Positions 2,941 through 21,892 of a DNA stretch of 64,000 bases are shown piece after piece. The position numbers and the translations under genes are program-made. Under the pieces are notes generated by a model, which searched no databases, was not told the DNA's origin, and saw only the letters and a list, made by a program, of their open reading frames with translations. Position 1 is the stretch's first letter, and each line of letters opens with the position of its first letter. Source of the DNA: Bacilli bacterium (GTDB taxonomy: Bacteria; Bacillota_I; Bacilli_A; RFN20; CAG-826); contig JAGBLL010000041.1 in NCBI GenBank assembly GCA_017635465.1, positions 17,685-81,684 of the forward strand. The letters are read 5' to 3'.

Positions 2941-2968
2941 CAAAAAGGAGCGTGATTAACACGCCCCT
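2941..2968 (-). terminator. Rho-independent terminator ending the long surface/transport gene array
   Basis: Minus strand GGGGCGTG-TTAA-TCACGCTCC hairpin (one G-U pair) followed by TTTTTG. It lies 22 nt after the TAA at 2990-2992. Confidence 0.65.
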
Positions 2969-2989: not shown

Positions 2990-5968
2990 TTATAATTCAA
3001 CGATGACAAGGTTGCCACCATATGTTAAACGGTAACCGCCACCACCTTGACTGAGTGTGAAGACGTTTTCGCCTTCAGCAAATGTTGCTTCAGGAACGAG
3101 AACGAATTCTGCGACAGCGGATGTACCAACGCCTAATTGAGAGAATGTGCCTGTTGAAACGGCGACATTTGTTTCGCCTACTTTACAAGTAACTGGGGAT
3201 TCGCTTAAATTATGGCCCACGTTGACAGCATCAATCTTAGCAGAAACACGGATTTCGTATTTGCCAGCCTTTGGAGCAATGATTTTCCAAGTGTTGTTGC
3301 TATTCTTTTTGAATTTTAAGCCAGTATCGATATCAGCGGATGAATAGTCGGCCATTGCCATTTTGGCGCCAACTTTACCGCAAGAGCATGATAATGGAGT
3401 AACGTTCTTGCCATCAGTGTTTTGAGCAACTGTACCTTCAACCCAAGCGTGAGCGTGTGGAAGTTCTTGACCATTGATTTTGCTTAATTTACCAGCGGCG
3501 AATTCTAATGTACCTTCGTATGTTTTGCCATCAGCACCAGGAATTTTGAGAGTTAAGACGCCAGTGTTATAAGCGGCATTAAGGACAATATAAACTCTAC
3601 AAACTTTGCTAGCAGCGATGTCATCAGAAACGATTACTTCGTTGATAGTTGCGGCTGGTTCAGAAACGTAAGTAGCAACGATGTTGGCTTTTGCAGCGTT
3701 GAAAGCGGCAAAATCAGCATATCCCATTGCACCATAGTTAACCCATGTCCAAATACCAGCACCTTCGAAGTGAATAGCTTGATTATCTGCACCTTCTGTG
3801 TACCAAGGTAAAACTTCGTTTGCTACTGCAGGAGTTCCACTTTCAGCAAAGAATTCCATATCTTGGAGGACGATACCAAAGTTAGCGTTAGAATTGGTAT
3901 TGCCACATTCGATGGTAATTTCTTTTGTGGCATCGAATTCGAATTCCAATTTACCAGCATTTGTTAATTTGCCATCAGCGATAACATCTTTGGAAATAAC
4001 ATTGTCTTTGAAAGCTTCGCTAATTGTTACACCATTGATGGTTAAGGTTGATGTCTTTGTCCAAGAATCACCAGAGATAGCGATTTTGCTAACGTCTTTT
4101 GTAACTTTGAAGACTAATTTACCAGCGGTTTTGGATTTACCAATCTTTAAAATGTTGAAGAGTGTCCAAGCTGTTTCACCACTACCACCGTTAGCACCTT
4201 CATAAATGCTTGTAGCTTCACTGACTGTGTCAAGAATTTCTTCGCCTGTTGCTTTTGTGAAGACGTTTTTAACGACATCGGTACCGATAGAACGTGTATT
4301 GCCTTCTGTTTGTGTTGTGAATGTATATTTAGCAACGGAAGCGTATTCTTTTTGTGTTTCGCCACCTTCGCCGCCTTCACCACCTTCGCCGCCACCGACT
4401 TTGGTAATGATACCAGAGCCTTGGACTGTACCGTTATAGTCAGCACGAATCATCTTTAATGTGATTTTATCACCGACTTTGAGGTCTTTTGTGGTTTCGT
4501 TTGTTAAGAAGTCTCGTGGGTTTGAGAAGGAATAAGCACCTGCTCCATCCCAAGCAAGAGCTGTAGCTGTAGCGGAAACGCCATACATCACTAAGTCAGT
4601 TGTGCCATCAGTGACTGTCATATTACCGAATTGATCAGCAGCTTCGCCTTTCCAAGCTTTTATTGTAGCTTCGACTTCATAGGCTTTAGTCTTTGTGTTT
4701 TCTAAAGCAACGAATTCTGTAACTGTCTTTTTAGCAACTGCTGGTTCTGGAACTGACCATTTTGTACCAGCTTCAATAACTGTGACATCAGCGTCTTTTA
4801 AGTCAAAGCCGTTTTCAACTGTACCATGATAGTTCTTAACAACCATTGTAACTTCGACTTTAGCGTTTTCTAATAATTTAGCGGCAAGAGCTTCAACTTT
4901 ACCAGCACCATATAATTCAATAGCGTTAGTACCTTTAATATCTCTTTCGCCGTGGTCTTTATCAGATTTACCAGCGACTAATGCTTCACCCTTTGCAGCG
5001 GTTAAGAAATAATCGTTACCGGATTTAGCAGAAACATAGCCTTGGAATTTGTAATAGTCATAGGAATCAGCGCCATCAGCAAGGGCATTACCAATTGCTA
5101 AGACTTCAGCAAATGTCTTGCCTTCAATTGTCTTTCTTGGTTGTGGTTTGTTGCCTTCACATTTAACGAAAATCGCAGATGTGGTTTCGGCTTGGGTATT
5201 ATTGTAAACGGTGAATTGACCGTGTGCAGTAACAGTACCACCAACCCAAATGTCATCGTCGGTTAAAGGTTGTTTTTGTTCTTTATCTTTATAACATTTG
5301 AATACTTCGAATTTTTCTGTTTTGCCTTCAGCAGGTGTTAAATAGAATGCGACACTACCGTCGGTTCTGCTGCCTGGAGCGTAATAGAATGAGGAAACAA
5401 CGCCTTTGACATAGAAGTCTTCGTTGTTGTATTTTTCACTCTTTGCGACTTTACAAGCATCTTCGTTATCGAATGGATCTTCTGCGGTACCTTCGTGAGC
5501 GACACCGTATTTTTCTTTGACTGTTTGTTTAGCTTGTAAAGTAACTTTGACTGAGTCAGTTGAATTACCACATTTAATGGTAACTGTCACTTCACCAGCA
5601 GCAACTGGGGAAGCCATTTGACCAGTAATGGTTAACTTTGTTGTGTCACTTGATGTAATTGTAATTTTGCCTTCATTAACTAATTGGGTGACGTTGGCTT
5701 TTGGATCAACTTCGATGTTGACCTTTCTTGATGCATCACCAACAAACCATTCAGCTTGAAGATCTGTTTTGTTGCTAATTGTTACTTTGTAATTGACTGG
5801 TGCTTCTGAAGATGTGCCTGGAACAGCTGAAGATTCGCCTGGTTGAGCGGATTGTTCAGATGTGCCTGGTTGAGATTGTGGCTGACTTGTAGTAGCTGGT
5901 TTATTACAAGCAGGAGCAACCAATGCAAGGCCTAACAATAAGGCAACGAGTTTTGTTCCTTTTTTCAT
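2990..5968 (-). CDS. Giant surface lipoprotein (~992 aa) with an Ig-like (Big_2-like) domain, three OB-fold-like modules, a (GGE)4 linker and a C-terminal beta-rich module
   Basis: I place the start at the ATG at 5966-5968 (AGGAG 8 nt upstream) rather than the GTG at 5986. Lipobox LVAPA-C, followed by NKPA and a Q/S/P stalk. Three segments fit the OB pattern, e.g. DFYVKGVVSS...IWVGGTVTAHGQFTVYNNTQAE. The C-terminal module ends GYRLTYGG. Confidence 0.85.
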   Translation of the reverse strand: MKKGTKLVALLLGLALVAPACNKPATTSQPQSQPGTSEQSAQPGESSAVPGTSSEAPVNYKVTISNKTDLQAEWFVGDASRKVNIEVDPKANVTQLVNEGKITITSSDTTKLTITGQMASPVAAGEVTVTIKCGNSTDSVKVTLQAKQTVKEKYGVAHEGTAEDPFDNEDACKVAKSEKYNNEDFYVKGVVSSFYYAPGSRTDGSVAFYLTPAEGKTEKFEVFKCYKDKEQKQPLTDDDIWVGGTVTAHGQFTVYNNTQAETTSAIFVKCEGNKPQPRKTIEGKTFAEVLAIGNALADGADSYDYYKFQGYVSAKSGNDYFLTAAKGEALVAGKSDKDHGERDIKGTNAIELYGAGKVEALAAKLLENAKVEVTMVVKNYHGTVENGFDLKDADVTVIEAGTKWSVPEPAVAKKTVTEFVALENTKTKAYEVEATIKAWKGEAADQFGNMTVTDGTTDLVMYGVSATATALAWDGAGAYSFSNPRDFLTNETTKDLKVGDKITLKMIRADYNGTVQGSGIITKVGGGEGGEGGEGGETQKEYASVAKYTFTTQTEGNTRSIGTDVVKNVFTKATGEEILDTVSEATSIYEGANGGSGETAWTLFNILKIGKSKTAGKLVFKVTKDVSKIAISGDSWTKTSTLTINGVTISEAFKDNVISKDVIADGKLTNAGKLEFEFDATKEITIECGNTNSNANFGIVLQDMEFFAESGTPAVANEVLPWYTEGADNQAIHFEGAGIWTWVNYGAMGYADFAAFNAAKANIVATYVSEPAATINEVIVSDDIAASKVCRVYIVLNAAYNTGVLTLKIPGADGKTYEGTLEFAAGKLSKINGQELPHAHAWVEGTVAQNTDGKNVTPLSCSCGKVGAKMAMADYSSADIDTGLKFKKNSNNTWKIIAPKAGKYEIRVSAKIDAVNVGHNLSESPVTCKVGETNVAVSTGTFSQLGVGTSAVAEFVLVPEATFAEGENVFTLSQGGGGYRLTYGGNLVIVEL

Positions 5969-6003
5969 GTTAATTTCTCCTTTCACAAAAAATGGAAACT
6001 GTG

Positions 6004-6477
6004 CTACTGCACAAAAGTTTTATTATTTATATCCTTTAAGAGGCTTGTGTAGGTGGTTTTGCGTTTTAATCCGAAGATTGTGAAAACCACTCCAAGTGTT
6101 AAAAGTATAACCGAGATAATAGCGAGCACTAGGAAAACCCAGAACTCAGGAGAAGAGACGGTAATCTTAAATTGATTATCGGCTTTTCTAGATAAAAGTA
6201 AGAAAACGATAGAAGCCACTAAAAGGATGACACCGATGGAGATATTACTCATACCTTTAGCGAAATCATTTCTTCCACGTTGAAGTTCAGCGTGGCAAGC
6301 TCTAGCTAATGATTTAACATCTTCTTCTGAGGCGTTACCATGAACTAAATGACCACATCTTGGACAGACATAGTTAATTTGTGTATCAGCATCTAAGCCT
6401 TCAATTTTTTGATATGTCGATTGTTTGCTTTCGATTTTATCTTCATCGAGCTTATAACCACAGTGATAACAATACAT
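6004..6477 (-). CDS. Zinc-ribbon membrane protein (157 aa)
   Basis: N-terminal CxxC (YHCGY) and CPRCG pair, then two hydrophobic helices. GGAGG SD. Function unknown. Confidence 0.75.
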   Translation of the reverse strand: MYCYHCGYKLDEDKIESKQSTYQKIEGLDADTQINYVCPRCGHLVHGNASEEDVKSLARACHAELQRGRNDFAKGMSNISIGVILLVASIVFLLLSRKADNQFKITVSSPEFWVFLVLAIISVILLTLGVVFTIFGLKRKTTYTSLLKDINNKTFVQ

Positions 6478-6499
6478 GATTAATGCCTCCTAAAATACA

Positions 6500-7984
6500 C
6501 TATTCTTTGACCCATTCTAAACCAGTAGCATCGTTAAAGATGATTTGGTAACTGGTTCTGTCATTATAAGTGTGATAAGTGTAAATACCACTTAATAAGA
6601 ATTTCTTACCGACGAATTGTTGTTCGGTATTCCAATATTCAAATTTCTTTTCTGGATCACCAGCATAAGAGAAGGTGAGGAAAGCTTCGAAATCGCAATC
6701 TTTGAAACCTAAAGTAATTTCATCACCTTTTGTGTTGATACGGAACTTATTGCATTCAACAGCTTCAGTAACTTTAACAGCGCAGTTTAAGCATTCAAAA
6801 CTACCATCTTTAGCAATTTTGCTTAATTCAGCGGCTTTATATTCAATCATATGTAAGCTTTGTTCGCCAACGTTTTCTTCGGCTTTGATGAGAATCTTGC
6901 AGTCTTCATCAGTCGCTTCGCTTTCGACGATTGGGAAGTGGCCTTCAGCACCTGTTAATTGGAAACCAAAGTTTTCACTATATTTAGCAAAGACACATAA
7001 TTGGATGAATGTGTTAATCTTACGATATTTGCTTGGGACAGAAGACATACCACAGAAGACGTTAATAGCAGCGTATTCCCCACCTTTAACGCCTTTACCT
7101 TCACCACGGATATCTTCACTATCGCTTTCTTCAAAATAGCTTTGTAAGTACATTGTGCCATTTGAATAACCCGCGACTGTACCACGGATTCTGACTTTAG
7201 TGCCATCTAATGGTGATTGGTAAGTCTTATCCTTAATATAATTCTCAGTAGCGACTTTTAAGTCTAATAAGCTTGTATTGACATAGTCACCAGTTGGGAA
7301 TGTATCTTCTGGGACACCAGAGAATAAATTGAGTTTATAATTCTTAGCTTGTGTTTCAGCAGCATAGAATGTATCAGCGTAATTAGGCATATCTTGAACG
7401 TTTTTAACCCAAGAATAGCCTTCTTGAACAATGGCGAGATTTAATAAATACAATTCGTTAAATGGCGCATCTTTCTTTGTTTCATTAATCCAAATTAAAG
7501 AGACAAATCTTTCACCGGTGGAGTCATATTGTGGACTACCATAGTCTTCTTGCGCTGTTGAAACAACGATTGTACCGTTTTCATTAGCGAGTTTTAATTT
7601 GCTCTTATTGAAATCACTAGCAGGTTGGCCCCATGGTTGAATACGTCCAGTTGATTCTGGAGTATCGATACCATAATAACGTGATTTGATGTTTAAACGG
7701 CTGGTAGTTGTTACTAGCGGAGTAAAGTGAGCGGTATCACCATCGATTGATTGATAAAGTTTGACTTGGCCAATGCCGTCTTTATAGAAGTCTCTACCTT
7801 TATAATCTAAAGATAATCTGACTGCCGAAGAAGCAGTATAGTCAACCCAGTTTTTATCACCACGTGATGGAGTGTTATCACCACTTGCACCACCAGAAGG
7901 ATTGCTTGTATTATTACAACCCGCTAATAAAGCAACAGTTAAGAAGGTGGCAACAGTTAATGTAATCTTTTTAAGTTTATTCAT
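6500..7984 (-). CDS. Surface lipoprotein nuclease, staphylococcal (thermo)nuclease-like, with a C-terminal OB-like extension
   Basis: Lipobox LLAG-C. The motif YYGIDTPES...PWG resembles the SNase catalytic core (DTPE). AGGAGG SD. Sits directly after the ABC importer genes, as in the mycoplasma SNase-lipoprotein/ABC loci I recall. Confidence 0.75.
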   Translation of the reverse strand: MNKLKKITLTVATFLTVALLAGCNNTSNPSGGASGDNTPSRGDKNWVDYTASSAVRLSLDYKGRDFYKDGIGQVKLYQSIDGDTAHFTPLVTTTSRLNIKSRYYGIDTPESTGRIQPWGQPASDFNKSKLKLANENGTIVVSTAQEDYGSPQYDSTGERFVSLIWINETKKDAPFNELYLLNLAIVQEGYSWVKNVQDMPNYADTFYAAETQAKNYKLNLFSGVPEDTFPTGDYVNTSLLDLKVATENYIKDKTYQSPLDGTKVRIRGTVAGYSNGTMYLQSYFEESDSEDIRGEGKGVKGGEYAAINVFCGMSSVPSKYRKINTFIQLCVFAKYSENFGFQLTGAEGHFPIVESEATDEDCKILIKAEENVGEQSLHMIEYKAAELSKIAKDGSFECLNCAVKVTEAVECNKFRINTKGDEITLGFKDCDFEAFLTFSYAGDPEKKFEYWNTEQQFVGKKFLLSGIYTYHTYNDRTSYQIIFNDATGLEWVKE

Positions 7985-7997
7985 ATTGCCTCCTTAA

Positions 7998-9449
7998 TTA
8001 TTTGATGTCTTTCTTAGCGTTATTAATCGCTGTAGCAAATGCATCATCAAGAGTGGATTTGCCATTTAAGACGTTAGTCACTAAAGAACCAACTTCTTTT
8101 CTTAATGTAGCACTGCCTGGGAAGACAGCAGAGTTGTAGTAGCGGCCATTAATGTCGTTTTGTATCACTAAGGCTGCTTCAGCGTAACCTTCACCATATT
8201 CAATGAAGTCACTGTATGTTTCAGTTGTGTAGCAAGAGTTTCTGACTGGAGAATAGCCTTCAGAACCATTGACACATAATGAAACGTTAACTTGTTTACT
8301 TGTTAAATATTTGATTAATTTCCAGCCATATTTAATCGCAGCAGCGTTTTGTGCTTCTGGTAATGATGGGTTATTGAGCATACAGACGGATGGACCTTGA
8401 GAGATGTAAGCGACTTGTTCACCCATGGTTGGAACTTTTGCGAATGCGACTTCAAATTGACCAGCATCAGGAATGGTATAACCTGTACCACCAGTAGAAC
8501 CGATAGAGAAGAGTGTTTTAACTTCTTTAAAGGAGTTACTAGCATATGTACCTTCCACGCCTTGCGTGGTTAATAAATGTTTATCGTGAGCATCTTTTAA
8601 AGCGGAAACGATATCTTTTGCTTTTTTTAAGTTAGCGCTTTCTTCGAAATCGACTTTACCTTTACCATCACTACCGATAGAAGAATAACCGATTTTGTTT
8701 TGATAAAGTTCAGTGATGAATAAGTTAGAATCACTATCATAATAGATTGGATATTCTAAGTTACTAGAAACTTGATCTTTATGTGCATAAGCTGCTTCCG
8801 CAATCTTGAGAAGTTGTTCCCAAGTGATGGTCTTCATATATTCAGCGACACGATCAACTGGAACTTCTGGATAAGCATAACTCATCGCCACTTTCACAGC
8901 GCTTAAGTTATAAGTCATGATTTCGGTTGATTTCATTAGTGGGATTAAGTATGTACCTTCTCTTTGTAATGAACGACCTTCATCTAAGTATGATTTAATC
9001 ATGTCACTTTCTGGCATGTTATCACCATAATCGGCTTCGGTACCGAATGTGGTAGCGCTGTCTTTTAAGAATTTATCAAAATTGACAACGTATTTGCCTT
9101 TTTCGTTACCTTCTAAAGCGAGATAGTCAGCGACATGGTCAGCATAAGCAATAGCGATTGTTGGGCTATCACCAGTAGCAATACCTGTTGTGACTTTACT
9201 TGGCATATCTTTATAGCCACCTTGATAAGAGAGATTGACTTCTAAATCAACGCCTTCTTTTTCTTTAACTAATTTAATAAAGGCATCGACTTTGCTCTTT
9301 AAAGCGGCTTCTGGTTTTTGACCAAATGTGTGCCAGAAAGTAACAGTAACTTTGCTAGAATCGGCACCAGATGAACCAGTGTTATTATTACCGCATCCCG
9401 CTAAGGAGGCGATTAATAATGGGAACATTAATATTGATATCTTTTTCAT
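7998..9449 (-). CDS. ABC transporter solute-binding lipoprotein (family 1, sugar/glycerol-phosphate-like), copy 2
   Basis: Lipobox SLAG-C. Size (483 aa) and sequence pattern are typical of extracellular solute-binding proteins. Paralogous to 9478-10968 (shared FITL/FSIGST.G/ISQGPS segments). Confidence 0.8.
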   Translation of the reverse strand: MKKISILMFPLLIASLAGCGNNNTGSSGADSSKVTVTFWHTFGQKPEAALKSKVDAFIKLVKEKEGVDLEVNLSYQGGYKDMPSKVTTGIATGDSPTIAIAYADHVADYLALEGNEKGKYVVNFDKFLKDSATTFGTEADYGDNMPESDMIKSYLDEGRSLQREGTYLIPLMKSTEIMTYNLSAVKVAMSYAYPEVPVDRVAEYMKTITWEQLLKIAEAAYAHKDQVSSNLEYPIYYDSDSNLFITELYQNKIGYSSIGSDGKGKVDFEESANLKKAKDIVSALKDAHDKHLLTTQGVEGTYASNSFKEVKTLFSIGSTGGTGYTIPDAGQFEVAFAKVPTMGEQVAYISQGPSVCMLNNPSLPEAQNAAAIKYGWKLIKYLTSKQVNVSLCVNGSEGYSPVRNSCYTTETYSDFIEYGEGYAEAALVIQNDINGRYYNSAVFPGSATLRKEVGSLVTNVLNGKSTLDDAFATAINNAKKDIK

Positions 9450-9477
9450 AAATTTTCTCCTTTCAATGAAGAAACGA

Positions 9478-10968
9478 TTACATATCTTTGAGTGTGTTAT
9501 TGACTGCTAAATCGAATTTTTCTTTTAAATATGTGTCATCAATGGTTTTGCCATCAGCAGCATCTTTTAAGACGTTAACCATTAAGGAGTTAACTTCTGT
9601 ACGGGCAGTTGAGGAACCTTTGAATGGAGGAGTTGTAAAGACTTTGTCAACAGTTGAGGAACTATAAACAGCGTTGAGAGCGGTTAATAATTCTGTACTA
9701 CGAGCATCTTTACCTTCTGTGGAGCAGTAATCACTATAAGCTTCACTTGTATAAGCAGAAGCACGAACTGGTAAATAACCAACTTCGATCGCCCAGGAAG
9801 CTGTGTTCTTGGTACTAACCATGTGCTTATAGAATAACCAAGCGGCTAATTGTCTATCTTTGTCACCATTGTGATCTAAGATACAAATGGATGGACCTTG
9901 AGAGATGATTTTAGCGGCTTTATCTTTTGCTTGTGGAATACGGGTAACACCGACATCGAATGTGTCAGCAACTTGGTTTTTAACGCCAGCGGTACTACCG
10001 ATGGAGAATAAGACGTTATTTTCTTTGAAATAGTTAGATGAATAGCTCTTACCAATGACACCTGGTGATCTTAAATAACCATTTTTAGAAGCATCGGCAA
10101 ATGTCTTCATTAAGCCTTTCATGTTGTCGTTATTGTAATCAAGGTGCGCTTCACCATATTCGTCAACACTGGTATAGCCATAACCATATTGTTGAGAAAG
10201 AGTAATGAATAAGTTAGCGTCACTATCGTAACCAACATAGGAATTCATGCTACCTTCTTTTTCAGTAATTAATGGTGAAGATGGATGAGCGGCATCATAT
10301 TCTTTGAAAGCTGGACATAATTTACCGAATAATTCTTCCCATGTTAAGGATTCAATATAAGCCTTATTCATGGTAATGCCTTTTGTGCTTAAGAATTGCA
10401 CGAGTTCACTATCGAATAAACGTGTTTCGTTATAGAACATCGCTTCTGTGGATTTGGAGAATGGTAAACAATATGTACCTTCAAGTGGGAATTCTTGACC
10501 TTCTTTAATATAAGCTTGGACTAAATCCGCTCTTTCTTGCTCTGTCCAACCATATTCAGCGTTGGTCATAAAGTCATCTAATTTGACGGCTTTGCCAAAG
10601 TCGAGATAGTCAACGACGTGGTCTGGATAAGCGATAACTAAATCGCCATATTCACCTGTTTGAATATCAGAAATTGTTTGAGAATGGATGGTATCGTAGT
10701 TACCACTGATCCAGCCATCTTCAAGTTTAATTTCGACATTTGGTTCAATTTCTTTAAATGAATCAACGAATGCTTGTAATTTCGCTTGATAGCCTTGAGC
10801 GTAAGCTTGTGTGAATTTAATGGTGACTTTGTGGTCGAAATGGCCAACTTTTTCACCTGGTTTTGATTCAGTAGATTGGTCACCACTATTACCACCGCCA
10901 TTGCTACATCCTGCTAAGGCAAGAATGGAAGTGAGAACCATTACTGGAACAAGAATTTTCTTTTTCAT
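9478..10968 (-). CDS. ABC transporter solute-binding lipoprotein, copy 1
   Basis: Lipobox ALAG-C, 496 aa, AGGAG SD. Paralog of the adjacent binding protein. Confidence 0.8.
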   Translation of the reverse strand: MKKKILVPVMVLTSILALAGCSNGGGNSGDQSTESKPGEKVGHFDHKVTIKFTQAYAQGYQAKLQAFVDSFKEIEPNVEIKLEDGWISGNYDTIHSQTISDIQTGEYGDLVIAYPDHVVDYLDFGKAVKLDDFMTNAEYGWTEQERADLVQAYIKEGQEFPLEGTYCLPFSKSTEAMFYNETRLFDSELVQFLSTKGITMNKAYIESLTWEELFGKLCPAFKEYDAAHPSSPLITEKEGSMNSYVGYDSDANLFITLSQQYGYGYTSVDEYGEAHLDYNNDNMKGLMKTFADASKNGYLRSPGVIGKSYSSNYFKENNVLFSIGSTAGVKNQVADTFDVGVTRIPQAKDKAAKIISQGPSICILDHNGDKDRQLAAWLFYKHMVSTKNTASWAIEVGYLPVRASAYTSEAYSDYCSTEGKDARSTELLTALNAVYSSSTVDKVFTTPPFKGSSTARTEVNSLMVNVLKDAADGKTIDDTYLKEKFDLAVNNTLKDM

Positions 10969-11021
10969 AAAAATTTCTCCTTTGAAATATTAAATTGTCA
11001 ACGACAATATTAATCAATTTA

Positions 11022-12005: not shown

Positions 12006-12017
12006 AGCGTCATCCTC

Positions 12018-13118: not shown

Positions 13119-13132
13119 AGACGCTCCTTTCG

Positions 13133-15040
13133 TTATTTGATATAGATTCTTTCATCTGTTTCAGAATCGAAGATGAATATTTTGTGAGGTTTAACTTTTA
13201 AAGCAACCTTTCCTGGATTGACTTTATCATCAGCGGAAATAATCGCTTTGAATGTTGGTTTGGTGCAGAATTCGTTTTTGGCCACAACAGAAATATCACG
13301 ACCCATAACTTGGATCATTTCACATTCAGCGTGTAAAACGTCTTTATCTTTTTCGTTAGCAAGGACAAATCCTTCTGGTCTAATAGCGACAGAGACTTTT
13401 TGGTCTTTAATGCCTTTAGCATCACCAACACAGTCTTCACCAACATAAATCTTTTCGCCTTTCACTTCACCAGCAAAGACATTGATTGGTGGAGTGCCTA
13501 AGAATTGAGCAACGAATAAGTTAGCTGGGCTATTATAAACTTCTTGTGGTGCGCCCATTTGTTGCATTTCGCCTAATTTCATAACAACGATCTTATCGGA
13601 AATAGACATAGCTTCTTCTTGGTCGTGTGTAACGAAGACGGAAGTAATACCTGTTTCTTGTTGGATACGTCTAATTTCTTCACGAGTTTGTAATCTTAAA
13701 CGCGCATCTAAGTTAGATAATGGTTCATCTAAAAGGAGAACGCGTGGGTGTTTAACAAGGGCACGAGCAATAGCAACACGTTGTTGTTGACCACCGGATA
13801 ATTGATTTGGTTTTCTTTGTAAATATTCATCAACTTGGACGAGTTTAGCGGTATCGTAAACGATATCTCTTCTCTCTTCTTTTGTTAATTTACGATGGGC
13901 AATTGCTTGCGCTGTATCTAAAACGACATCACTTAAATTCAATTCTTTGGCAAGTTCATCCATCACTTGTTTAGCAGCGTCTGTGGATGTTCTATGGAGT
14001 TTGAAATAAATCTTTGTGTGTTCGTTATCGTAATAAAGTTTAAGGTCTGTAATCTTTAAATGATGTTTCTTAAAATAATCTCTCACGAATCTTTCGTTTT
14101 CTCTATTAACGACATTACTAACGAAATAATGAGGATTTTCCATATTCGCACTACCGATGATCGCGTTATAGCAATCTTGTAAGCGAGAATGTAATAAGCC
14201 TTTAACACGAGCGACTAAATCAAAGCCACGTTTACCACGGGAGATGACGATTTCACCTGGATTACCAATTGGTTTAATCGCTTCTCTAATGGCCTTAATT
14301 GTGTCGTCCATTTTTGATAAGTTAAAGTCTTTATCTAATCTTGATTTGAATGTTAAATCAATTGTTTCTATTTCGCCAATCTTATTGACGGTTGCTCTCA
14401 CGGTAGAATCAAACAAAGCTTCAGATGTTTGTTTTTCTTCAACGTTGGTTAATTCCGCTTCAATGATTTTTGGGAAATTGTCAACGAATAAGTTCTTATA
14501 TTTAGGAGCAACATTCTTGAGAAGAACCACTAATGTTAAGTTATTTTCTTCTAAGGAAGAATTGATTTGGAATTGTTTTTTGTTTAAACCGACACGTTTG
14601 CAAAGAGAATCAACGGATTTGAGGATGCCATCTAAAACATCTCTCTTTTTCATTACGTATTTGTAAGTGAGGGTAAAATCAAAGAATGTGACGAGTGGAA
14701 TTTCCACTTGGAGATTAGTTAATGGGAACTCAATGTTCTTGTAGATGGTCATATGAGGATAAAGAGCGTAGTTTTGGAAAACTAAACCAATACCTCTTTT
14801 TTCTGGAGATAAATTAGTGACTTCTTGATCACCGAACCACACTTCACCAGAAGTTGGTGTTTGTAAACCAGAAATCATATAAAGGGTGGTTGATTTACCA
14901 CATCCTGAAGGGCCTAACAAACCAACAAGAGTGCCATCATCAACGTTAAAGTTTAAATCTTTAACCGCAATAGTGTCACGAATGTTTTTGTGTGCATCAC
15001 CAGGGAAAATCTTAGTTAAATCTTTAATTCTAATTTCCAT
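13133..15040 (-). CDS. ABC transporter ATP-binding protein (MalK/UgpC/MsmX type) carrying a ~270-aa insertion
   Basis: Walker A GPSGCGKST, Q-loop region VFQNYALYPHMT, signature LSGGQQQR, Walker B LLLDEPLS and H-loop VTHD. About 270 residues (aa ~111-381) lie between the Q-loop region and the signature motif. C-terminal regulatory domain present. Confidence 0.9.
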   Translation of the reverse strand: MEIRIKDLTKIFPGDAHKNIRDTIAVKDLNFNVDDGTLVGLLGPSGCGKSTTLYMISGLQTPTSGEVWFGDQEVTNLSPEKRGIGLVFQNYALYPHMTIYKNIEFPLTNLQVEIPLVTFFDFTLTYKYVMKKRDVLDGILKSVDSLCKRVGLNKKQFQINSSLEENNLTLVVLLKNVAPKYKNLFVDNFPKIIEAELTNVEEKQTSEALFDSTVRATVNKIGEIETIDLTFKSRLDKDFNLSKMDDTIKAIREAIKPIGNPGEIVISRGKRGFDLVARVKGLLHSRLQDCYNAIIGSANMENPHYFVSNVVNRENERFVRDYFKKHHLKITDLKLYYDNEHTKIYFKLHRTSTDAAKQVMDELAKELNLSDVVLDTAQAIAHRKLTKEERRDIVYDTAKLVQVDEYLQRKPNQLSGGQQQRVAIARALVKHPRVLLLDEPLSNLDARLRLQTREEIRRIQQETGITSVFVTHDQEEAMSISDKIVVMKLGEMQQMGAPQEVYNSPANLFVAQFLGTPPINVFAGEVKGEKIYVGEDCVGDAKGIKDQKVSVAIRPEGFVLANEKDKDVLHAECEMIQVMGRDISVVAKNEFCTKPTFKAIISADDKVNPGKVALKVKPHKIFIFDSETDERIYIK

Positions 15041-15051
15041 AATATATCTCC

Positions 15052-17058
15052 TTAATTTGTGCCGTCGTCTAGGACGTCTTCATTTAATTTGAGTTTAATG
15101 ATTCTTCTTCTTTCTCTATTTGTCTTAACTACACCAACCATGAATTTGATGAAGTAACCGATAATGACAACAGATAAGACAGAAAGAATAATGATGTAAG
15201 CATCAGCTGGGTTATAAACAACAATCGCGTTATTTAAAGCAGTAGCTCTTAAAACGATGAACACGATATCGAACAAGACTACTAAACTACCGACTAGGAA
15301 GATAGCGGCCTTAACAAAGAATGATTTGCTTTTCATTCTTCTAAATTCATCGTTTTTATATTTGTTCTTCAAGTAGAAGTAGAGACCTAAAGTAGCACCT
15401 ACAAACGCTACAGTATAAGCGATAAGTAAGATGATTAAGAAAGCGTTAACATTAAATAAGTTAGCGGATTCTGAATATGGCATGATGGAATGATAACCAA
15501 ATCTAGTAATGACATTACTACGAGCGATTGGTCCTTTAGCCGCCATTAAATCTAAGGTAACAAATAAGCCAACAAATGAGACTTCTCTAATCTTCTCAGC
15601 GGAGAAATTAGGAGCAATGTCACTGTTTTTGAAAAGGAATGATACTTTATTACCTTTTGTTTTTTCTAATTTGAATTGAGCGATAGGTGTGACGATTTTG
15701 ACATCTTTTTGTAATTCATTACCACCATCGACATAGGTGATTCTAAAACTACAAAGTGTTAAAGATGTTAATCTATAACGGATTTTGAGTTTACCACTAT
15801 TGATGTCGTTTAAATTGGTGTTGTAGTAATTGGCTTTTAAATGTTCATAAACATTGGCTTCAGAAATATCAATATTCAAATCGATTGCGGAATAGCCTGA
15901 GAATGTTGATAAGCCAGTGAATGAACATTCAATGAAGTCTTTAATGTCATACAATCTTGTGAAACCTTGTTTTGGTTCGATGTTATAAGCTTGTGATAAA
16001 TCTGGTTCAGTAATCGCGACATCATTAACTGATCTAGCGCGGTAGATGTTATGTAAAACTGCTGAACTAAAATCAATTACTTCGCCATCTTTTAATGGGA
16101 TATCACAATATAAAGATTTGGTGTAGTCGTTAACTTGACGACCAACGCATTCAAATAATGAACTAGCGGATGTTGGCGCGAATTCGAAATAACGTGTTTC
16201 AGCAGCACCACCATCTTTAGACACTTGATATTCGAGCACTAATGGTTTTTGTTCTCCTTCTTTTGGATACCAACCAATGATGAAGTTTTGTTTTTCGTCA
16301 CCGTATTTAGAAGCACCAGCTTTGGAGAATGGTTCGGCTTTAGCCACTGGATAAGCATAACCATAGTTAACTTTAGCACCATGGTTCCAATCAGCTGCCC
16401 AACCATCTAAATTAGCATCAGGTTCAACGTTGAAGATCATACCTTCTGGAACGTTTTGGAATGAATCGGAATAAATTTCAGTAACATCTTTTGGAATGTT
16501 GATAGATGTAATGCCTGTCCAATCAGGAACAACATCAACGCCTAGACGAGTAACATCTAAGTTAAAAATATGGTTTCTTGTTAAGGAACGAGGAATGTAG
16601 ATATCTTTGACATTTGTTGTCGCAGCTAAGCTATAAACATAGGAGTTGAAATGAACCGGTTCATATTCACCCTTTTCATATGCTTCAGTAATCTTTTCTC
16701 TTTCTTCAGCGGTTTTAGAATTGAAATCCTTTAAATATTCATCAAAGTCAGCATCATCTGGCGCTAACAAGAACGAAGTGGTTGCATCGCACCATCCTTG
16801 ACCACCAGTTGAGAACATAAAAGTAAAAGACTGCCCCATTGATGTTTTAGTGGAGGAAGTAGCAGATACGACAAGATTGCCATCTGGAATTCCCACTTCA
16901 CTTGAATAATCAGGAGCAGCTTCTCTTCTTGTTAGATAACGTGGTTCGGATAAGGATGTTGGTTTGGACATGGTCTTTGAAATTGTTGCACTAAAAGGTA
17001 ACAAGCAAAAAAGACTCATTAAGCCCAGCATGCATGGAAGGACATGTTTTTTAACCAT
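15052..17058 (-). CDS. Membrane-anchored surface protein of unknown function (668 aa)
   Basis: I place the start at ATG 17056-17058 (GGAGG 8 nt upstream). N-terminal signal/anchor, an ectodomain of ~520 aa, three C-terminal TM helices and a basic tail. One BspA-like segment (IPKDVTEIYSDSFQNVP). Confidence 0.75.
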   Translation of the reverse strand: MVKKHVLPCMLGLMSLFCLLPFSATISKTMSKPTSLSEPRYLTRREAAPDYSSEVGIPDGNLVVSATSSTKTSMGQSFTFMFSTGGQGWCDATTSFLLAPDDADFDEYLKDFNSKTAEEREKITEAYEKGEYEPVHFNSYVYSLAATTNVKDIYIPRSLTRNHIFNLDVTRLGVDVVPDWTGITSINIPKDVTEIYSDSFQNVPEGMIFNVEPDANLDGWAADWNHGAKVNYGYAYPVAKAEPFSKAGASKYGDEKQNFIIGWYPKEGEQKPLVLEYQVSKDGGAAETRYFEFAPTSASSLFECVGRQVNDYTKSLYCDIPLKDGEVIDFSSAVLHNIYRARSVNDVAITEPDLSQAYNIEPKQGFTRLYDIKDFIECSFTGLSTFSGYSAIDLNIDISEANVYEHLKANYYNTNLNDINSGKLKIRYRLTSLTLCSFRITYVDGGNELQKDVKIVTPIAQFKLEKTKGNKVSFLFKNSDIAPNFSAEKIREVSFVGLFVTLDLMAAKGPIARSNVITRFGYHSIMPYSESANLFNVNAFLIILLIAYTVAFVGATLGLYFYLKNKYKNDEFRRMKSKSFFVKAAIFLVGSLVVLFDIVFIVLRATALNNAIVVYNPADAYIIILSVLSVVIIGYFIKFMVGVVKTNRERRRIIKLKLNEDVLDDGTN

Positions 17059-17095
17059 ATTATTGGCCTCCAACGATTCCGTTTTAATCAATTAC

Positions 17096-17125
17096 ATTAT
17101 ACATGTATATGCCTGCGCTACGCAA
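17096..17125 (-). promoter_or_regulatory. Candidate internal sigma-A promoter ahead of the 668-aa gene and the ABC genes
   Basis: Minus strand TTGCGT-18 nt-TATAAT, within the 76-nt gap between 17135 and 17058. Confidence 0.5.
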
Positions 17126-17134
17126 TATCTTTTC

Positions 17135-18202
17135 TTAATCGTAATTCCTTGTTTTAAAATCCACTGGTTTTTTGTATGGAGTGGTCTTTTCTAGTTCCAC
17201 TTCTTGAAAAGAAAGATAAATCTTTGTTCTTCTTGAATCAACTTCCGTTAAGCGGAGCATATAATCAGGGAATCCTTGTTTATTTTTGGAGAAAACCATG
17301 AGTGAAAATGAAATGATAATTGGTAGTCCAAAAGTGAATAAAGAAAGGATCAAAATTGCAAAATAGAAAATAGCAAATCTCGCTAAGGAGCGTGGTAAAG
17401 ATGGCGATAAGCAGTTTGCGTCCACTAAACCAATGCCGTATATTGCTTTACCAACTGTCATTCTGCCACGTCTAAGGATAAGTGTTGGTAAAAGATAAAC
17501 AATTAAACCAGTAAAGCAATAGACTGCAAAAATATTGACCCATAAAAGCATATTAGTTTGATAGGTAATAATTGATTTGTAATTAGGCACAGCCACTACT
17601 AGATAAGCTTGAAGGTGATTATCGATATATGGTTGATAGGCTTTTTTATAATATTCTGTATAGATTTGTGAGCTGACACTTTCCACTGATTCAAATAAGT
17701 CAGGATTCTCTATTACTTCGTTATTTTCATCGATGACAAACATCTTTATATTGTTATGAACCATGTCATCTTTTAAACGATATTCGCGGTAATCTTTGAC
17801 TATTTCTTCATAGTTTTCATTAGTGGCTACGCTTTTAGCGTAACTAACAAAGGTATCAATCGCTTTTTTAGATCTAGTCATCCTAGATTTAGCGGTTTGT
17901 CCTTTATCGTAATTTAATACAGAAACGATATCTCTTAAGACATTATCGTCATCATATTCATATAGGCCGGAATCTAATCGCATTTGTGTTAATTGGTTAG
18001 CTTTGTTTTTATATGTTGGAGCGTTTCTAATTATTTCTCTAACACCTAAAAAGCAAGATAAAAAGACAAAAACAAAAATCAATATGTCAACGAGATTAGC
18101 AAATATGCGATGCGTTAGTTTAGGGCGATAATATAGGACATTAATGTTTTGACTATTTGTCGCTACTTCGCCAGAGACTATTTCATTAATATTTTCTTCC
18201 AT
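17135..18202 (-). CDS. Polytopic membrane protein, RDD-family-like (tentative), paralog B
   Basis: Short N-terminal cytoplasmic segment, a TM helix (RIFANLVDILIFVFVF), a soluble loop of ~190 aa and three C-terminal TM helices. Same architecture as the upstream gene. Confidence 0.7.
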   Translation of the reverse strand: MEENINEIVSGEVATNSQNINVLYYRPKLTHRIFANLVDILIFVFVFLSCFLGVREIIRNAPTYKNKANQLTQMRLDSGLYEYDDDNVLRDIVSVLNYDKGQTAKSRMTRSKKAIDTFVSYAKSVATNENYEEIVKDYREYRLKDDMVHNNIKMFVIDENNEVIENPDLFESVESVSSQIYTEYYKKAYQPYIDNHLQAYLVVAVPNYKSIITYQTNMLLWVNIFAVYCFTGLIVYLLPTLILRRGRMTVGKAIYGIGLVDANCLSPSLPRSLARFAIFYFAILILSLFTFGLPIIISFSLMVFSKNKQGFPDYMLRLTEVDSRRTKIYLSFQEVELEKTTPYKKPVDFKTRNYD

Positions 18203-18205
18203 ATC

Positions 18206-19363
18206 TTAAATCTTATACCCTCTAGCGCGATATATTTCATCCATTTCTTCACTTGTTAAATAAAGCGAATTAGAAAGATAGTCGATAAGTGAACGATTGT
18301 ATTGATTAAATAATATGAAGAACATACTACCTAAAAGTAAAACAATTGAGAAAACACTTCCATACATTAAGAAATGCAAAGCGAATAAATTATTAAATGG
18401 CACAAGTAATGAAGGGACGAACATAATGCCTAGCATAGTAGCGAATAAATAATAAATGGAAGTTAAGACCACCATCGCTCTACTTGTATGGTTCAAAGTA
18501 TAGAAATTAACTTTTTCAATTTTCATAAGAATCATCGCTAATGTCTTTCTATCTTTACGCACTATTGGAAGAATTAGGAATAACACTAACCAAATAACAA
18601 CATGAGAAATAATTGCGGAAATGGTCATGAGGTTTTCATGATATGTTTCTAATTGTTTAATGCGGTTTTTGCAATCTAAGAAAGAGCGTTTTTCACCTGC
18701 AAAATGCAAATCGTTCTTTTCGATATCTTTCATAACTTCTGCGAGAAGTGGATTAAAAACATTTTTAGAAATAGCGGAATAATATTTATTTCCGATATCC
18801 CCCATTGCGTCTTTTGGATCATAGAAAGAATATATCTCGTTTTTAACCTCTTTTTTTAAATTAAACTCTTTGGTTGTTTCATCATAAACGAAATAATTAT
18901 CTTTAGCGTTATAGTATTTAAAACTATCGATATATGTTTGTTCATCGTTTCTAATATCTTTATAAAAATGATAAATGACATCATTTTCTTTTTTGCGACC
19001 ATACTGTGGATGCTTACTATCAATGCTTTCTTCATTATCTAAAACGAAATAGCTTAAGAAGCAGCGATAAGAATATTCCACTCCTGCAGTCACATCTGTA
19101 CGGTCAAAACTATCATCTTTTAATAACACTTTAGCGTTGTAATAATGATCATACATATCAAGCGTTAAAAGAATGTGCTCGTCGTTTTTAGCTTCATAAT
19201 TAGTGATGACTTTACCAATTGGGGCCACCATGATGTTAAAAATTAAAAAAGATAAGATGAAATGAATAAAGAAATCTGCAAGAAAAACTAATATCCTTTT
19301 CCCTTTCGTTAAAGGATGGATATCAACATATTTCTCACTAGATGCTGTTACTTCTTCATTCAT
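18206..19363 (-). CDS. Polytopic membrane protein, RDD-family-like (tentative), paralog A
   Basis: Same architecture (KRILVFLADFFIHFILSFLIF, a large loop, C-terminal TM helices). There is a 3-nt gap to the next gene. Confidence 0.7.
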   Translation of the reverse strand: MNEEVTASSEKYVDIHPLTKGKRILVFLADFFIHFILSFLIFNIMVAPIGKVITNYEAKNDEHILLTLDMYDHYYNAKVLLKDDSFDRTDVTAGVEYSYRCFLSYFVLDNEESIDSKHPQYGRKKENDVIYHFYKDIRNDEQTYIDSFKYYNAKDNYFVYDETTKEFNLKKEVKNEIYSFYDPKDAMGDIGNKYYSAISKNVFNPLLAEVMKDIEKNDLHFAGEKRSFLDCKNRIKQLETYHENLMTISAIISHVVIWLVLFLILPIVRKDRKTLAMILMKIEKVNFYTLNHTSRAMVVLTSIYYLFATMLGIMFVPSLLVPFNNLFALHFLMYGSVFSIVLLLGSMFFILFNQYNRSLIDYLSNSLYLTSEEMDEIYRARGYKI

Positions 19364-19369
19364 AACCTA

Positions 19370-20497
19370 CTATTTATCAATTAAGATACTTTTAATTGTG
19401 TCTAATTTTTCCTTAGAAACACCGATGACGTTATTTAAATAGTTATATGTCTTTTCTTGTAAGGTTTCGCCTTCATAACCTTTAATTGTCTTACCATATC
19501 TATCATCGATATCTTTAGTTTCACAAATACCACTTATCTTAGAGAAATTTGAGAATAAATAATCACGATAAATATCTTCTTCGTTCATCCCACATAACGC
19601 TTCAATTAAATAGGCCATGCAGCCTGTTCTATCTTTACCAATCGCGCAGTGGAAATCTAAAGGATAATTGTTTTTATCCGCCAAAGCTTCAAAGAAAATC
19701 TTTATCTGCGCGGGATTATCATATAGATAAGCACTATGTTCACCAACATAAGTTAAAACATTTTCGCCACCATAATACATTGGTAAATGCATATAGTTTA
19801 CTTTGTCTCCGATTGGAGAAGCTTTGATATTACCGTTTTCTCCTGGTCTTCTTAAATCGATCTCTGTTTTAACTTTTAAAACATTTGTTAATGTATTAAT
19901 AGAATTGCTATCCAAGATAGAATCACCAGTTTCCGCTTCGTTAAAGCGACCACTGCGGTAGATTAAACCTTGTTTAATGCCATGACCGCCTAAATCACGC
20001 ATGTTCATGACGTTATTGACCAAAAGGTTACGTGGACCCTTGTTCGTCGTTTTAAAGGCACCTTTTTCGCTTTTAAACTGTACACTATCACTATAATAAG
20101 CAGTAACTTGGTAATAATATTTTGTATTTAATTTAAAATTGTATACTTCAATGCCATCAGGGTTAGTGATTTCACTTTGTGTATACCAAGGTGTTTCTTC
20201 ATTTTCTTCATATATATCAATAATGTAATATTTAGGATCTTTATTATTGTTAGATTTAGAACCTTCCCATTTAATAAAAACTGGTTGAGGTAATTCTTTA
20301 GATGAACTACCCGCAGCAATACCCGCGGTTGTTTTATAATCTTCCGCATTAATATATTTGTTTTGTAGTTCTGTATGGAAATCAAAACTAAATTCATCAT
20401 AATTAATTTTAAAATTAAAAGATGTGGGATTGCTTTGACACGCTAATAAAGAAGTAAGGAATATTAACAATGATATTGTGGAGATTATTTTTTTCAT
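19370..20497 (-). CDS. Surface lipoprotein with a protein-tyrosine-phosphatase-like (Y_phosphatase3-type) catalytic domain
   Basis: Lipobox SLLA-C. NMRDLGG...GLIYRSG...EIDLRR segments and the P-loop HCAIGKDRTG (CX5R) followed by DYLFSN. The N-terminal ~130 aa is a beta-rich domain. Confidence 0.8.
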   Translation of the reverse strand: MKKIISTISLLIFLTSLLACQSNPTSFNFKINYDEFSFDFHTELQNKYINAEDYKTTAGIAAGSSSKELPQPVFIKWEGSKSNNNKDPKYYIIDIYEENEETPWYTQSEITNPDGIEVYNFKLNTKYYYQVTAYYSDSVQFKSEKGAFKTTNKGPRNLLVNNVMNMRDLGGHGIKQGLIYRSGRFNEAETGDSILDSNSINTLTNVLKVKTEIDLRRPGENGNIKASPIGDKVNYMHLPMYYGGENVLTYVGEHSAYLYDNPAQIKIFFEALADKNNYPLDFHCAIGKDRTGCMAYLIEALCGMNEEDIYRDYLFSNFSKISGICETKDIDDRYGKTIKGYEGETLQEKTYNYLNNVIGVSKEKLDTIKSILIDK

Positions 20498-20517
20498 AAA
20501 TTTTTTCCTATTAGAAG

Positions 20518-20545
20518 ATTATAGCAATTAATTACTACTTTGTAA
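20518..20545 (-). promoter_or_regulatory. Candidate promoter of the long surface/transport array
   Basis: Minus strand TTACAA-16 nt-TGCTATAAT (extended -10). It lies between the tuf terminator and the ATG at 20497. Confidence 0.5.
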
Positions 20546-20549
20546 TCAC

Positions 20550-20577
20550 AAAAAAACTCACCTCGATTGAGATGAGT
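20550..20577 (-). terminator. Rho-independent terminator of tuf
   Basis: Minus strand ACTCATCTC-AATC-GAGGTGAGT hairpin (one mismatch) followed by T7. It lies ~25 nt after the tuf stop. Confidence 0.7.
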
Positions 20578-20601
20578 TTTGTTTGTTTTGTTTTAGTGAA
20601 A

Positions 20602-21786: not shown

Positions 21787-21835
21787 AAAATTGAAATCTC
21801 CTTTCTTTCGTTAATAACAAGTTTGCAACGAAATC

Positions 21836-21864
21836 ATAATATAGCAATATTTTGTTTCGTGCAA
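21836..21864 (-). promoter_or_regulatory. Candidate internal promoter for tuf
   Basis: Minus strand TTGCAC-17 nt-TATTAT in the 106-nt fusA-tuf spacer. Confidence 0.4.
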
Positions 21865-21892
21865 TATCATTTGATATTACACAGTTTTATTT

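Follow-up and report, generated by a model that had tools for sequence, protein, structure and literature searches.

A candidate operon of uncultured rumen and gut Bacilli for capturing and importing nucleic acids at the cell surface

In a 64,000-nucleotide stretch of contig JAGBLL010000041.1 (assembly GCA_017635465.1, positions 17,685 to 81,684; hereafter the window), twelve large open reading frames (ORFs) on the minus strand, at 2990–20497, form an array that we interpret, with moderate confidence, as a surface nucleic-acid scavenging and import operon of an uncultured rumen and gut Bacilli lineage. In the proposed scheme, a large lipoprotein with predicted OB folds would hold extracellular DNA or RNA at the membrane, and an SNase-family lipoprotein would cut the polymer into 3′-phosphorylated mono- and dinucleotides, the products that staphylococcal nuclease releases. 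Two lipoproteins of the UgpB clade would capture phosphate-containing fragments, most likely nucleotides or dinucleotides, which UgpA/E-like permeases and a UgpC-like ATPase would import; accessory phosphatases and nucleases may trim the substrates or widen their range. The cargo is more probably phosphorylated, as a nucleotide or dinucleotide, than a nucleoside.

The window comes from a metagenome contig, matches ENA ERZ27256935 k141_755638 almost completely (8 differences in 21.9 kb) and uses the standard genetic code. The genes of the array and their notable internal regions are listed below in window coordinates, in the direction of transcription.
19370–20497, minus strand: Y_phosphatase3-family lipoprotein phosphatase, an accessory gene (PF13350, E 4e-28)
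18206–19363, minus strand: RDD-family membrane protein 1, RDD1 (PF06271, 27.5 bits against a cutoff of 24.1)
17135–18202, minus strand: RDD-family membrane protein 2, RDD2 (PF06271, 47.1 bits against a cutoff of 24.1, E 4e-12)
15052–17058, minus strand: 668-aa membrane-anchored ectoprotein with a beta-sandwich-rich ectodomain and three long C-terminal helices
13133–15040, minus strand: UgpC/MalK-type ATP-binding cassette (ABC) ATPase of 635 aa with a C-terminal regulatory domain (PF00005 in two pieces)
13919–14719, minus strand: ~270-aa insert within the helical subdomain of the ATPase (residues ~108–374, boundaries from BLASTP)
12018–13118, minus strand: CUT1 permease, UgpA/MalF-like (PF00528, BPD_transp_1; best NCBIfam match UgpA)
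11022–12005, minus strand: CUT1 permease, UgpE/MalG-like (PF00528, BPD_transp_1; best NCBIfam match UgpE)
9478–10968, minus strand: solute-binding lipoprotein 1 (solute-binding protein 1, SBP1), UgpB clade (SBP_bac_8 and SBP_bac_1)
7998–9449, minus strand: solute-binding lipoprotein 2 (SBP2), a paralogue of SBP1 (SBP_bac_8)
6500–7984, minus strand: SNase-family lipoprotein nuclease (PF00565, 40.9 bits against a cutoff of 21)
6004–6477, minus strand: zinc-ribbon membrane protein (CxxC...CxxC and two helices)
2990–5968, minus strand: 992-aa lipoprotein with a Big_2-like domain, three OB folds, two jelly rolls and a variable tail (AlphaFold2 and Foldseek)
4394–5509, minus strand: tandem OB-fold region of that lipoprotein, residues ~160–531 in a 998-aa numbering (model and Foldseek)

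A preliminary description of this DNA had counted thirteen genes; twelve are found, and its own list names twelve. Its gene identifications otherwise hold up well. The Y_phosphatase3-type phosphatase, the two permeases (BPD_transp_1 twice), the two solute-binding lipoproteins (SBP_bac_8 twice), the MalK/UgpC-like ATPase with a large insert (ABC_tran split by ~270 aa) and the SNase-like nuclease (PF00565 over threshold, residues of the catalytic motifs invariant) were all recovered. So were the membrane-anchored ectoprotein, whose ectodomain and C-terminal helices appear in the structural model, the zinc-ribbon membrane protein, recognized from its sequence motifs, and the three OB-fold-like modules, whose fold is supported by AlphaFold2 and Foldseek with RPA70 on top. 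Of its functional proposal the nucleic-acid theme survives; the phosphatase as a conserved member is not supported, and the order of dephosphorylation followed by import is doubtful.

Scanning one genome per GTDB species with an alignment of the ectoprotein yielded 39 further loci (numbered L below), which were annotated by BLASTP of the window proteins against six-frame ORFs. All 39 come from rumen or gut metagenome-assembled genomes (MAGs) labelled as uncultured Erysipelotrichaceae, Bacilli or Bacillales, Candidatus Scatoplasma merdavium and similar names. The common order is RDD1, RDD2, ectoprotein, ATPase, permease, permease, SBP1, SBP2, SNase, zinc-ribbon protein and large lipoprotein, and each neighbouring pair from RDD1 to the lipoprotein is retained where both genes are on the locus (24–38 loci per pair), with L035 as the one exception. 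RDD1 adjoins RDD2 in 29 of 29 loci, RDD2 precedes the ectoprotein gene in all 30 loci that carry both, the nuclease gene adjoins the binding-protein genes in 30 of 31, the zinc-ribbon gene follows the SNase gene in 28 of 28, and the lipoprotein gene follows the zinc-ribbon gene in 24 of 24. The stretch from the ectoprotein to the zinc-ribbon gene is contiguous in 28 of the 39 loci, and the shared order persists at ectoprotein identities as low as 26–30%. Neighbourhood conservation, which the preliminary description had proposed to survey, is thus seen in 39 other genomes. Four loci (L021, L023, L026 and L028) showed no detectable RDD pair ahead of the ectoprotein gene, which fits a core unit running from the ectoprotein to the lipoprotein. 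Separately, the bins of L025, L036 and L019 are labelled Roseburia hominis, Bacteroides uniformis or Faecalibacillus sp.; on loci with a Bacilli-type operon, such names probably reflect mistakes made in binning or labelling the source assemblies.

SBP1 and SBP2 share 33% identity (BLASTP E 2e-62). Searched singly against the PDB, SBP1 found UgpB proteins, and SBP2 found the 7C0x series best. With a joint profile built from 14 SBP1/SBP2 sequences, the 19 best PDB matches were all UgpB-clade proteins with phosphate-containing ligands. The matches of this profile rank as follows.
7C0F/7C0X series, Thermus U3G (dinucleotide) binder: E 1.3e-27
4AQ4, E. coli UgpB: E 6.5e-26
9LFF, marine UgpB: E 2e-22
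4MFI and 6R1B, M. tuberculosis UgpB: E 1e-19 to 1e-16
Various entries, sugar binders: E 5e-14 and weaker

The phosphate-ligand clade is thus separated from the sugar-binding proteins by 13 orders of magnitude or more in E-value. The top entry, 7C0F, is the uridylyl-3′-5′-phosphoguanosine binding protein of Thermus thermophilus (PMC12718374 Table S5). In the UgpB clade two Tyr and two Ser coordinate the phosphate of the ligand, and two Trp that clamp the glycerol (Trp188/191 in that paper's own numbering) are present only in binders of glycerol-3-phosphate (G3P) (PMC12718374). We aligned E. coli UgpB from MG1655 with the 14 SBP sequences, the equivalence of positions resting on this alignment. 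Residues matching Y42, S121, S247, R374 and the tyrosine of a GY motif are invariant in 14 of 14; the same 14 have A, D or S in place of W169, F or Y in place of W172, and Pro or Ala in place of E66. In the numbering of E. coli UgpB, we take W169 and W172 to be the glycerol clamp. Because the phosphate-site residues are invariant and the presumed clamp Trp are lost, the two SBPs look, from their sequences, like binders of a phosphate ester other than G3P. With an SNase encoded next door, nucleotides or dinucleotides are the obvious candidate ligands. A G3P-specific Ugp reading was rejected on the loss of the Trp clamp.

The same protein family invites another interpretation, namely Ugp-like uptake of glycerophosphodiesters or glycerol phosphate from host or microbial lipids or teichoic acids, with the SNase-like protein acting as a general phosphodiesterase or being unrelated. 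UgpC, UgpA and UgpE are the best NCBIfam matches of the transporter core, the E. coli, marine and M. tuberculosis UgpB proteins are among the top PDB matches, and the phosphate site is conserved. However, all NCBIfam Ugp scores are far under their equivalog cutoffs (346 bits against 432 for UgpC, 71 against 335 for UgpA, 96 against 297 for UgpE and 29 against 411 for UgpB), and the replacements at Trp169 and E66 extend to every SBP in the alignment. The array also has no glycerophosphodiesterase gene, and its variable accessory genes encode nucleases, nucleotidases and OB-fold lipoproteins. We consider such a role unlikely; together with nucleoside uptake after full dephosphorylation it is the main alternative.

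The nuclease of the proposed scavenging operon has the lipobox LLAGC, an SNase domain at residues ~75–227 and a C-terminal region of ~265 aa. A profile built from 14 orthologues aligns in two blocks with staphylococcal nuclease (E 1e-10). Seven residues, D81, D83, R102, D107, T108, E110 and R159, are invariant among these orthologues; they correspond in the alignment to the DGDT and DTPE motifs and to the conserved arginines of staphylococcal nuclease, so that an active nuclease is likely. The C-terminal region has no sequence match in the PDB; weak OB matches (Ten1, RPA3) arise in single orthologues only. Profile–profile comparison of the SNase family with the large-lipoprotein family gave a probability of 39%, which is not significant and does not establish OB modules common to both lipoproteins. 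Two orthologues are unusually built. That of L032 has 710 aa, with extra C-terminal repeats resembling further OB-type modules. In L039 the SBP and SNase orthologues are 589–616 aa long, both SBPs being over-long, and the SNase orthologue has a long acidic Ser/Glu-rich linker after the lipobox. A PADLOC search with eight proteins matched only a generic SNase domain (PDLC01096, E 7e-7) and nothing in the other seven; an anti-phage defence reading was rejected, as nothing specific was returned.

The large lipoprotein has 246 relatives from Bacilli MAGs, all unnamed or 'hypothetical', in which the N-terminal ~530 aa are conserved at 50–75% identity and the C-terminal half is variable. An AlphaFold2 model from 40 sequences is confident over residues 63–530, 546–716 and 723–843. 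The predicted local distance difference test score (pLDDT) of the OB region, residues 160–530, is ~90 and mostly above 88; the tail is poorly modelled. Foldseek against the PDB placed the tandem OB folds of RPA70 on single-stranded DNA first (4gop_C, E 1.9e-6, probability 1.0) and RPA from a repair complex next, with further matches to the jelly rolls of the carbohydrate-binding modules (CBMs) CBM6, CBM36 and CBM22 and to immunoglobulin (Ig)-like domains of LigA/LigB. Single homologues give weak S1, tRNA_anti-codon and S17 Pfam matches to the OB region. The predicted structure supports tandem RPA70-like OB folds in this protein. Just after the array terminator lies an 828-aa lipoprotein gene (356–2842, minus strand) with its own promoter-like site. 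Its product has no Pfam match and no OB region; residues 840–996 of the large lipoprotein match its residues 63–244 (E 6e-7), and residues 591–647 match 539–593.

Further context comes from the genes that vary between loci. The phosphatase, whose motif HCAIGKDRTG (CX5R) aligns with 8dhi, lies upstream of RDD1 in 8 of the 39 loci, each from a close relative, and in one locus, L035, it comes after the nuclease. Since it adjoins the array only in the closest relatives, it is not an obligatory part of the 39-genome system, contrary to its listing as an array member in the preliminary description. At the place of the phosphatase, or at a place inside the array, other loci have different genes. L016 and L032 encode an Endonuclease_1 protein with Big_2 and a membrane anchor, and L015 and L029 encode Metallophos and 5_nucleotid_C lipoproteins whose best NCBIfam match is 2′,3′-cyclic-nucleotide phosphodiesterase/3′-nucleotidase/5′-nucleotidase. 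L035 has a lipoprotein with a Pfam-significant tRNA_anti-codon OB domain, L041 a lipoprotein with OB-like repeats by sequence and no Pfam match, and L019 a third RDD paralogue. All of the accessory functions that recur have nucleic acids or nucleotides as substrates, and in our view this is the strongest contextual evidence for the nucleic-acid theme. Phosphatases and extra nucleases are best read as interchangeable accessories rather than obligatory steps.

Unrelated neighbours (SIR2-like, PncA/PncB, Fic) are also present at some loci. One of them, a ~433-aa SIR2_2 protein (PF13289, E 1e-12), lies just upstream of RDD1 in several distant genomes (L030, L034 and L036–L042), between tuf and the array. 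SIR2_2-type proteins are often found in anti-phage systems; here the gene is apparently an unrelated insertion at the same hotspot.

The accessory enzymes bear on whether the cargo keeps its phosphate. If the polymer were cut, its products fully dephosphorylated at the surface and nucleosides imported by the SBPs and the ABC core, an extracytoplasmic PTP-type phosphatase opening the array in the window genome, and nucleotidase-type lipoproteins at the same place in L015 and L029, would be expected company. Against this stand the restriction of the phosphatase to the closest relatives, the retention in the SBPs of the phosphate-coordinating Tyr/Ser/Arg set of the UgpB clade, and the fact that the nucleoside binder of mycoplasmas, P48, is a separate protein. 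We judge nucleoside import to be unlikely. The preliminary description's sequence of dephosphorylation and then uptake is doubtful on the same grounds, both binding proteins being of the UgpB clade with phosphate-coordinating residues kept.

Several points weigh against import of nucleic-acid fragments: (i) CUT1 transporters carry mostly sugars. (ii) The two domains that follow the OB modules resemble carbohydrate-binding jelly rolls in Foldseek. The preliminary description had raised the prospect that the OB-like modules are themselves carbohydrate-binding domains; these do not resemble CBMs, but the two following domains do. (iii) The large lipoprotein of the window has no match in Pfam, OB nucleic-acid-binding models included. 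(iv) The OB region (pI ~5, net charge −13) and the SNase domain (pI ~5) are acidic, which is unusual for nucleic-acid binders; the argument is weaker than it looks because all ectodomains of the organism are acidic, the SNase domain included. (v) Clade membership of the SBPs cannot separate nucleotides from glycerophosphodiesters, because the similarity to 7C0F is modest and about tied with that to G3P-binding UgpB. (vi) Our best reading of the affinities of the array, as an enlarged relative of the nuclease-associated CUT1 cluster of mycoplasmas, draws the likeness from published descriptions. (vii) An M. pneumoniae mutant in the nuclease lipoprotein MPN133 of such a cluster grows poorly on glycerol, according to a passage of PMC4766277 that cites Grosshennig 2013, and this phenotype speaks for glycerophosphodiester uptake.

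Some of these points would also suit an ordinary CUT1 oligosaccharide importer, in which the jelly rolls would bind glycans and the nuclease would serve another purpose, such as breaking down biofilm or extracellular traps, the importer merely happening to lie among surface proteins. Besides the usual cargo of the family and the CBM36/CBM22/CBM6-like domains, such a role could call on the generic SBP_bac_8/1 matches, which are all that Pfam gives for the SBPs, and on one source that names the ATPase 'multiple sugar transport system ATP-binding protein'. The ranking of sugar binders in the joint profile argues the other way, no glycoside hydrolase was found in or beside the array in the 39 loci inspected, and the nuclease gene keeps its place next to the SBP genes in all but one of 31 loci. 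We regard a sugar importer as the least probable of the alternatives weighed here, and very improbable in itself.

The transporter of the proposed nucleic-acid operon has the composition of the CUT1 family (TC 3.A.1.1), with a MalK/UgpC-type ATPase bearing a regulatory domain, two BPD_transp_1 permeases and SBP_bac_1/8 binding proteins. In BLASTP with E. coli UgpC, the best NCBIfam match of the ATPase, residues 3–107 and 375–632 align. Because the alignment falls in two blocks, ~270 residues are inserted in the helical subdomain, just after the Q-loop region. Searched alone, the insert has 15 matches among 1.84 billion representative proteins, all within the lineage, and its profile has no sequence match in the PDB. 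All 38 orthologous ATPases are 631–655 aa long, so that the insert always accompanies the ectoprotein. In a homologue search with the whole ATPase, the matches listed are ~91%-identical rumen variants, with no mycoplasma or Acholeplasma ATPase among them. More than 100 distinct variants of this kind from public metagenomes are among the matches listed, which suggests that, in ruminant samples at least, the lineage is abundant and microdiverse.

The ectoprotein has no match in Pfam or NCBIfam, and its family comprises 59 clusters, none of them annotated. Its AlphaFold2 model has a pLDDT of 79, and Foldseek returns generic Ig/arrestin-like beta-sandwiches with TM-scores below 0.26. The best-conserved segments, a predicted cytoplasmic loop (KNKYKNDEFRR) and a tail (KLKLNED..DDGT), are near-invariant. 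Since they are cytoplasmic rather than in the ectodomain, a conserved cytoplasmic partner is suggested. We suspect that the ectoprotein docks on the transporter, and speculate that the ATPase insert is a candidate for the partner. Of the other membrane proteins, RDD1 has by hydropathy one N-terminal helix, a ~200-aa loop and C-terminal helices. The preliminary description had called the two RDD proteins paralogous; they belong to the same family and share an architecture, but BLASTP between them is not significant (E 2.2), and close paralogy was rejected. The zinc-ribbon matches of the 6004–6477 product are sub-threshold.

A bolder version of the import scheme would unite the CUT1 core, ectoprotein, zinc-ribbon protein, RDD pair and ATPase insert in one larger-than-canonical ABC machine that imports SNase-generated di- or oligonucleotides directly. 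We put this forward as a long shot. If true, it would be the first oligonucleotide ABC importer and a fuller form of the transporter that mycoplasmas keep reduced.

The preliminary description had placed the array on one strand between a promoter candidate and a terminator, and both boundary elements are found. The transcription signals, again in window coordinates, are these.
20553–20580, minus strand: intrinsic terminator after tuf, the upstream boundary of the array (12-bp stem and T run; −18.6 kcal/mol, z −5.6)
20518–20546, minus strand: outer promoter candidate (ATTACA-17-TATAAT with upstream TG)
17096–17125, minus strand: internal promoter candidate (TTGCGT-18-TATAAT, in the longest gap of the array)
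2946–2968, minus strand: intrinsic terminator, the downstream boundary of the array (9-bp stem with 6 GC pairs, and T run; −17.9 kcal/mol, z −5.5)

Both terminators are strong, and the outer promoter candidate is the top-scoring site of a consensus promoter scan (10 of 12 matches, with TG). Every gene of the array is preceded by a GGAGG-type ribosome-binding site. With start codons chosen by these sites, the successive gaps are 6, 3, 76, 11, 14, 12, 53, 28, 13, 22 and 35 nt, spanning exactly the 3–76 nt stated earlier. The internal promoter reported at 17096–17125 is likewise present, and a scan of the array for internal terminators found no strong one, as had been claimed; the sole intergenic hairpin, at the junction of the zinc-ribbon and lipoprotein genes, is weak (z −1.6). 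A riboswitch search of window positions 1–24000 and seven related loci returned tRNAs only, so that regulation offers no hint as to the ligand.

In every locus the longest gap (69–222 nt) is the one ahead of the ectoprotein gene. TTGCGT and TATAAT are conserved in the near relatives L004–L012 while the spacer between them diverges, and a TATAAT-like box lies ahead of the ectoprotein gene in the majority of the distant loci too; an internal promoter is expected on these grounds. Judging by the conserved candidate there would be two units, (phosphatase)-RDD-RDD and ectoprotein-to-lipoprotein, perhaps joined by read-through. The claim of a single array thus holds as to synteny and the lack of a strong internal terminator, and is qualified as to transcription. 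Taken further, the pattern would yield two or three independent units downstream of tuf, namely the phosphatase with the RDD pair, the transporter with the nuclease, and the large lipoprotein. The four loci in which the RDD pair went undetected and the highly variable C-terminal half of the lipoprotein fit such a division, as does the internal promoter. However, the RDD pair precedes the ectoprotein in 29 loci, the lipoprotein keeps its place after the zinc-ribbon gene, and the linkage holds at 26–30% identity, where chance linkage would have decayed; independence of the parts is, in our estimate, very unlikely.

The array lies directly downstream of an rpsL-rpsG-fusA-tuf operon (20602–24454), and tuf is likewise upstream in 20 of the 39 related loci. 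With such very highly expressed genes as conserved neighbours, some transcription might run on past the tuf terminator. Within fusA (21893–23974) there is an in-frame TAA at 23807–23809 on the minus strand, at a conserved Glu of EF-G. A near-identical contig, L001, has GAA at that position; it differs from the window at 8 sites in 21.9 kb, four of which have T in the window and G in L001. The TAA is probably a sequencing or assembly error rather than the mark of a pseudogene.

Only part of the route by which wall-less and genome-reduced Bacillota gain nucleotides from nucleic acid outside the cell is understood. Nucleases have been described, as has a nucleoside transporter. What the nuclease-linked ABC transporter conserved in many mycoplasmas carries has been a matter of hypothesis since 2007–2013, and our literature search found no later identification. 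The operon described here is more informative than the mycoplasma loci, since it has two UgpB-clade SBPs near a solved dinucleotide binder, accessory enzymes that act on nucleic acids or nucleotides, and a dedicated OB-fold lipoprotein. The cargo question becomes a binding question on two soluble proteins. The operon also defines three unannotated protein families and a new ATPase insert in organisms abundant in rumen metagenomes.

Among known systems, the P48 lipoprotein transporter, to which nucleoside uptake in mycoplasmas has been assigned experimentally, resembles the array in pairing a surface lipoprotein with an ABC importer, and it supplies nucleic-acid precursors to a genome-reduced bacterium. 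P48 differs from the SBPs of the array in presumably belonging to the BMP/PnrA-type family, binding an unphosphorylated nucleoside and having no linked nuclease. Bacillus subtilis YhcR, as we understand it, combines OB-fold, SNase and 5′-nucleotidase/3′-nucleotidase-type domains in one wall-anchored surface polypeptide that is presumably not linked to an importer; the array and its variants would spread the same activities over separate lipoproteins with an ABC transporter.

E. coli UgpBAEC has the same transporter architecture, and UgpC, UgpA and UgpE are the top NCBIfam matches of the ATPase and the two permeases. The full length of UgpB aligns with the SBPs (E 6.5e-26), which keep Y42, S121, S247 and R374. 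Unlike Ugp, the SBPs of the array have lost Trp169 and have Phe or Tyr for Trp172, the ATPase has the 270-aa insert, there is no UgpQ-type phosphodiesterase, and all scores are below the equivalog cutoffs. The Thermus protein 7C0F is the best solved-structure match of the SBP profile, a CUT1/UgpB-clade protein whose ligand is a phosphodiester-linked dinucleotide. The aligned Tyr/Ser positions of its phosphate site are conserved in the SBPs, with only ~230 of 470 positions aligning, in three blocks. We know of no linked nuclease in Thermus. The structural work is that of Chandravanshi et al. 2021, as cited in PMC12718374.

The closest likeness is to the nuclease-associated clusters of mycoplasmas (MAG_5030–5070, MPN133–136, the mhp379 locus and MG185–189), which were compared through published descriptions and family models. 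Like the array, they place an SNase surface lipoprotein beside one ATPase, two CUT1 permeases and a binding lipoprotein. The ATPases MG187 and MPN134 presumably also carry a large insert; the searches with the insert described here, which matched in-lineage proteins only, showed no link between the two. Co-transcription has been reported in M. agalactiae for the genes of the P80 binding lipoprotein, the SNase MAG_5040, an ATPase and two permeases. The arrangement of SBP, SNase and ABC genes is conserved in many mycoplasmas, and import of nucleotide precursors has been hypothesized for it and never shown; the pairing and the nucleotide-supply proposal cited in the preliminary description are both documented in this literature. 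The mycoplasma order is SBP, nuclease, ATPase, permease, permease (PMC3585158), in contrast to ATPase, permeases, SBP, SBP, nuclease in the array. The array further differs in having two binding proteins instead of one, five extra conserved genes (two RDD proteins, ectoprotein, zinc-ribbon protein and OB-fold lipoprotein), an ATPase insert with relatives found only within its own lineage, the standard genetic code, and uncultured rumen and gut Bacilli as hosts. Its SBPs match the mycoplasma P68 and MG185 lipoprotein models weakly, below the curated thresholds (54 and 53 bits against 200 for NF045826, lipo_P68; 18 against 25 for PF03305), so that they are relatives of that lipoprotein type without counting as members. 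Because the P68-family scores fall under the cutoff, we call the array a variant of the mycoplasma cluster rather than a member of it.

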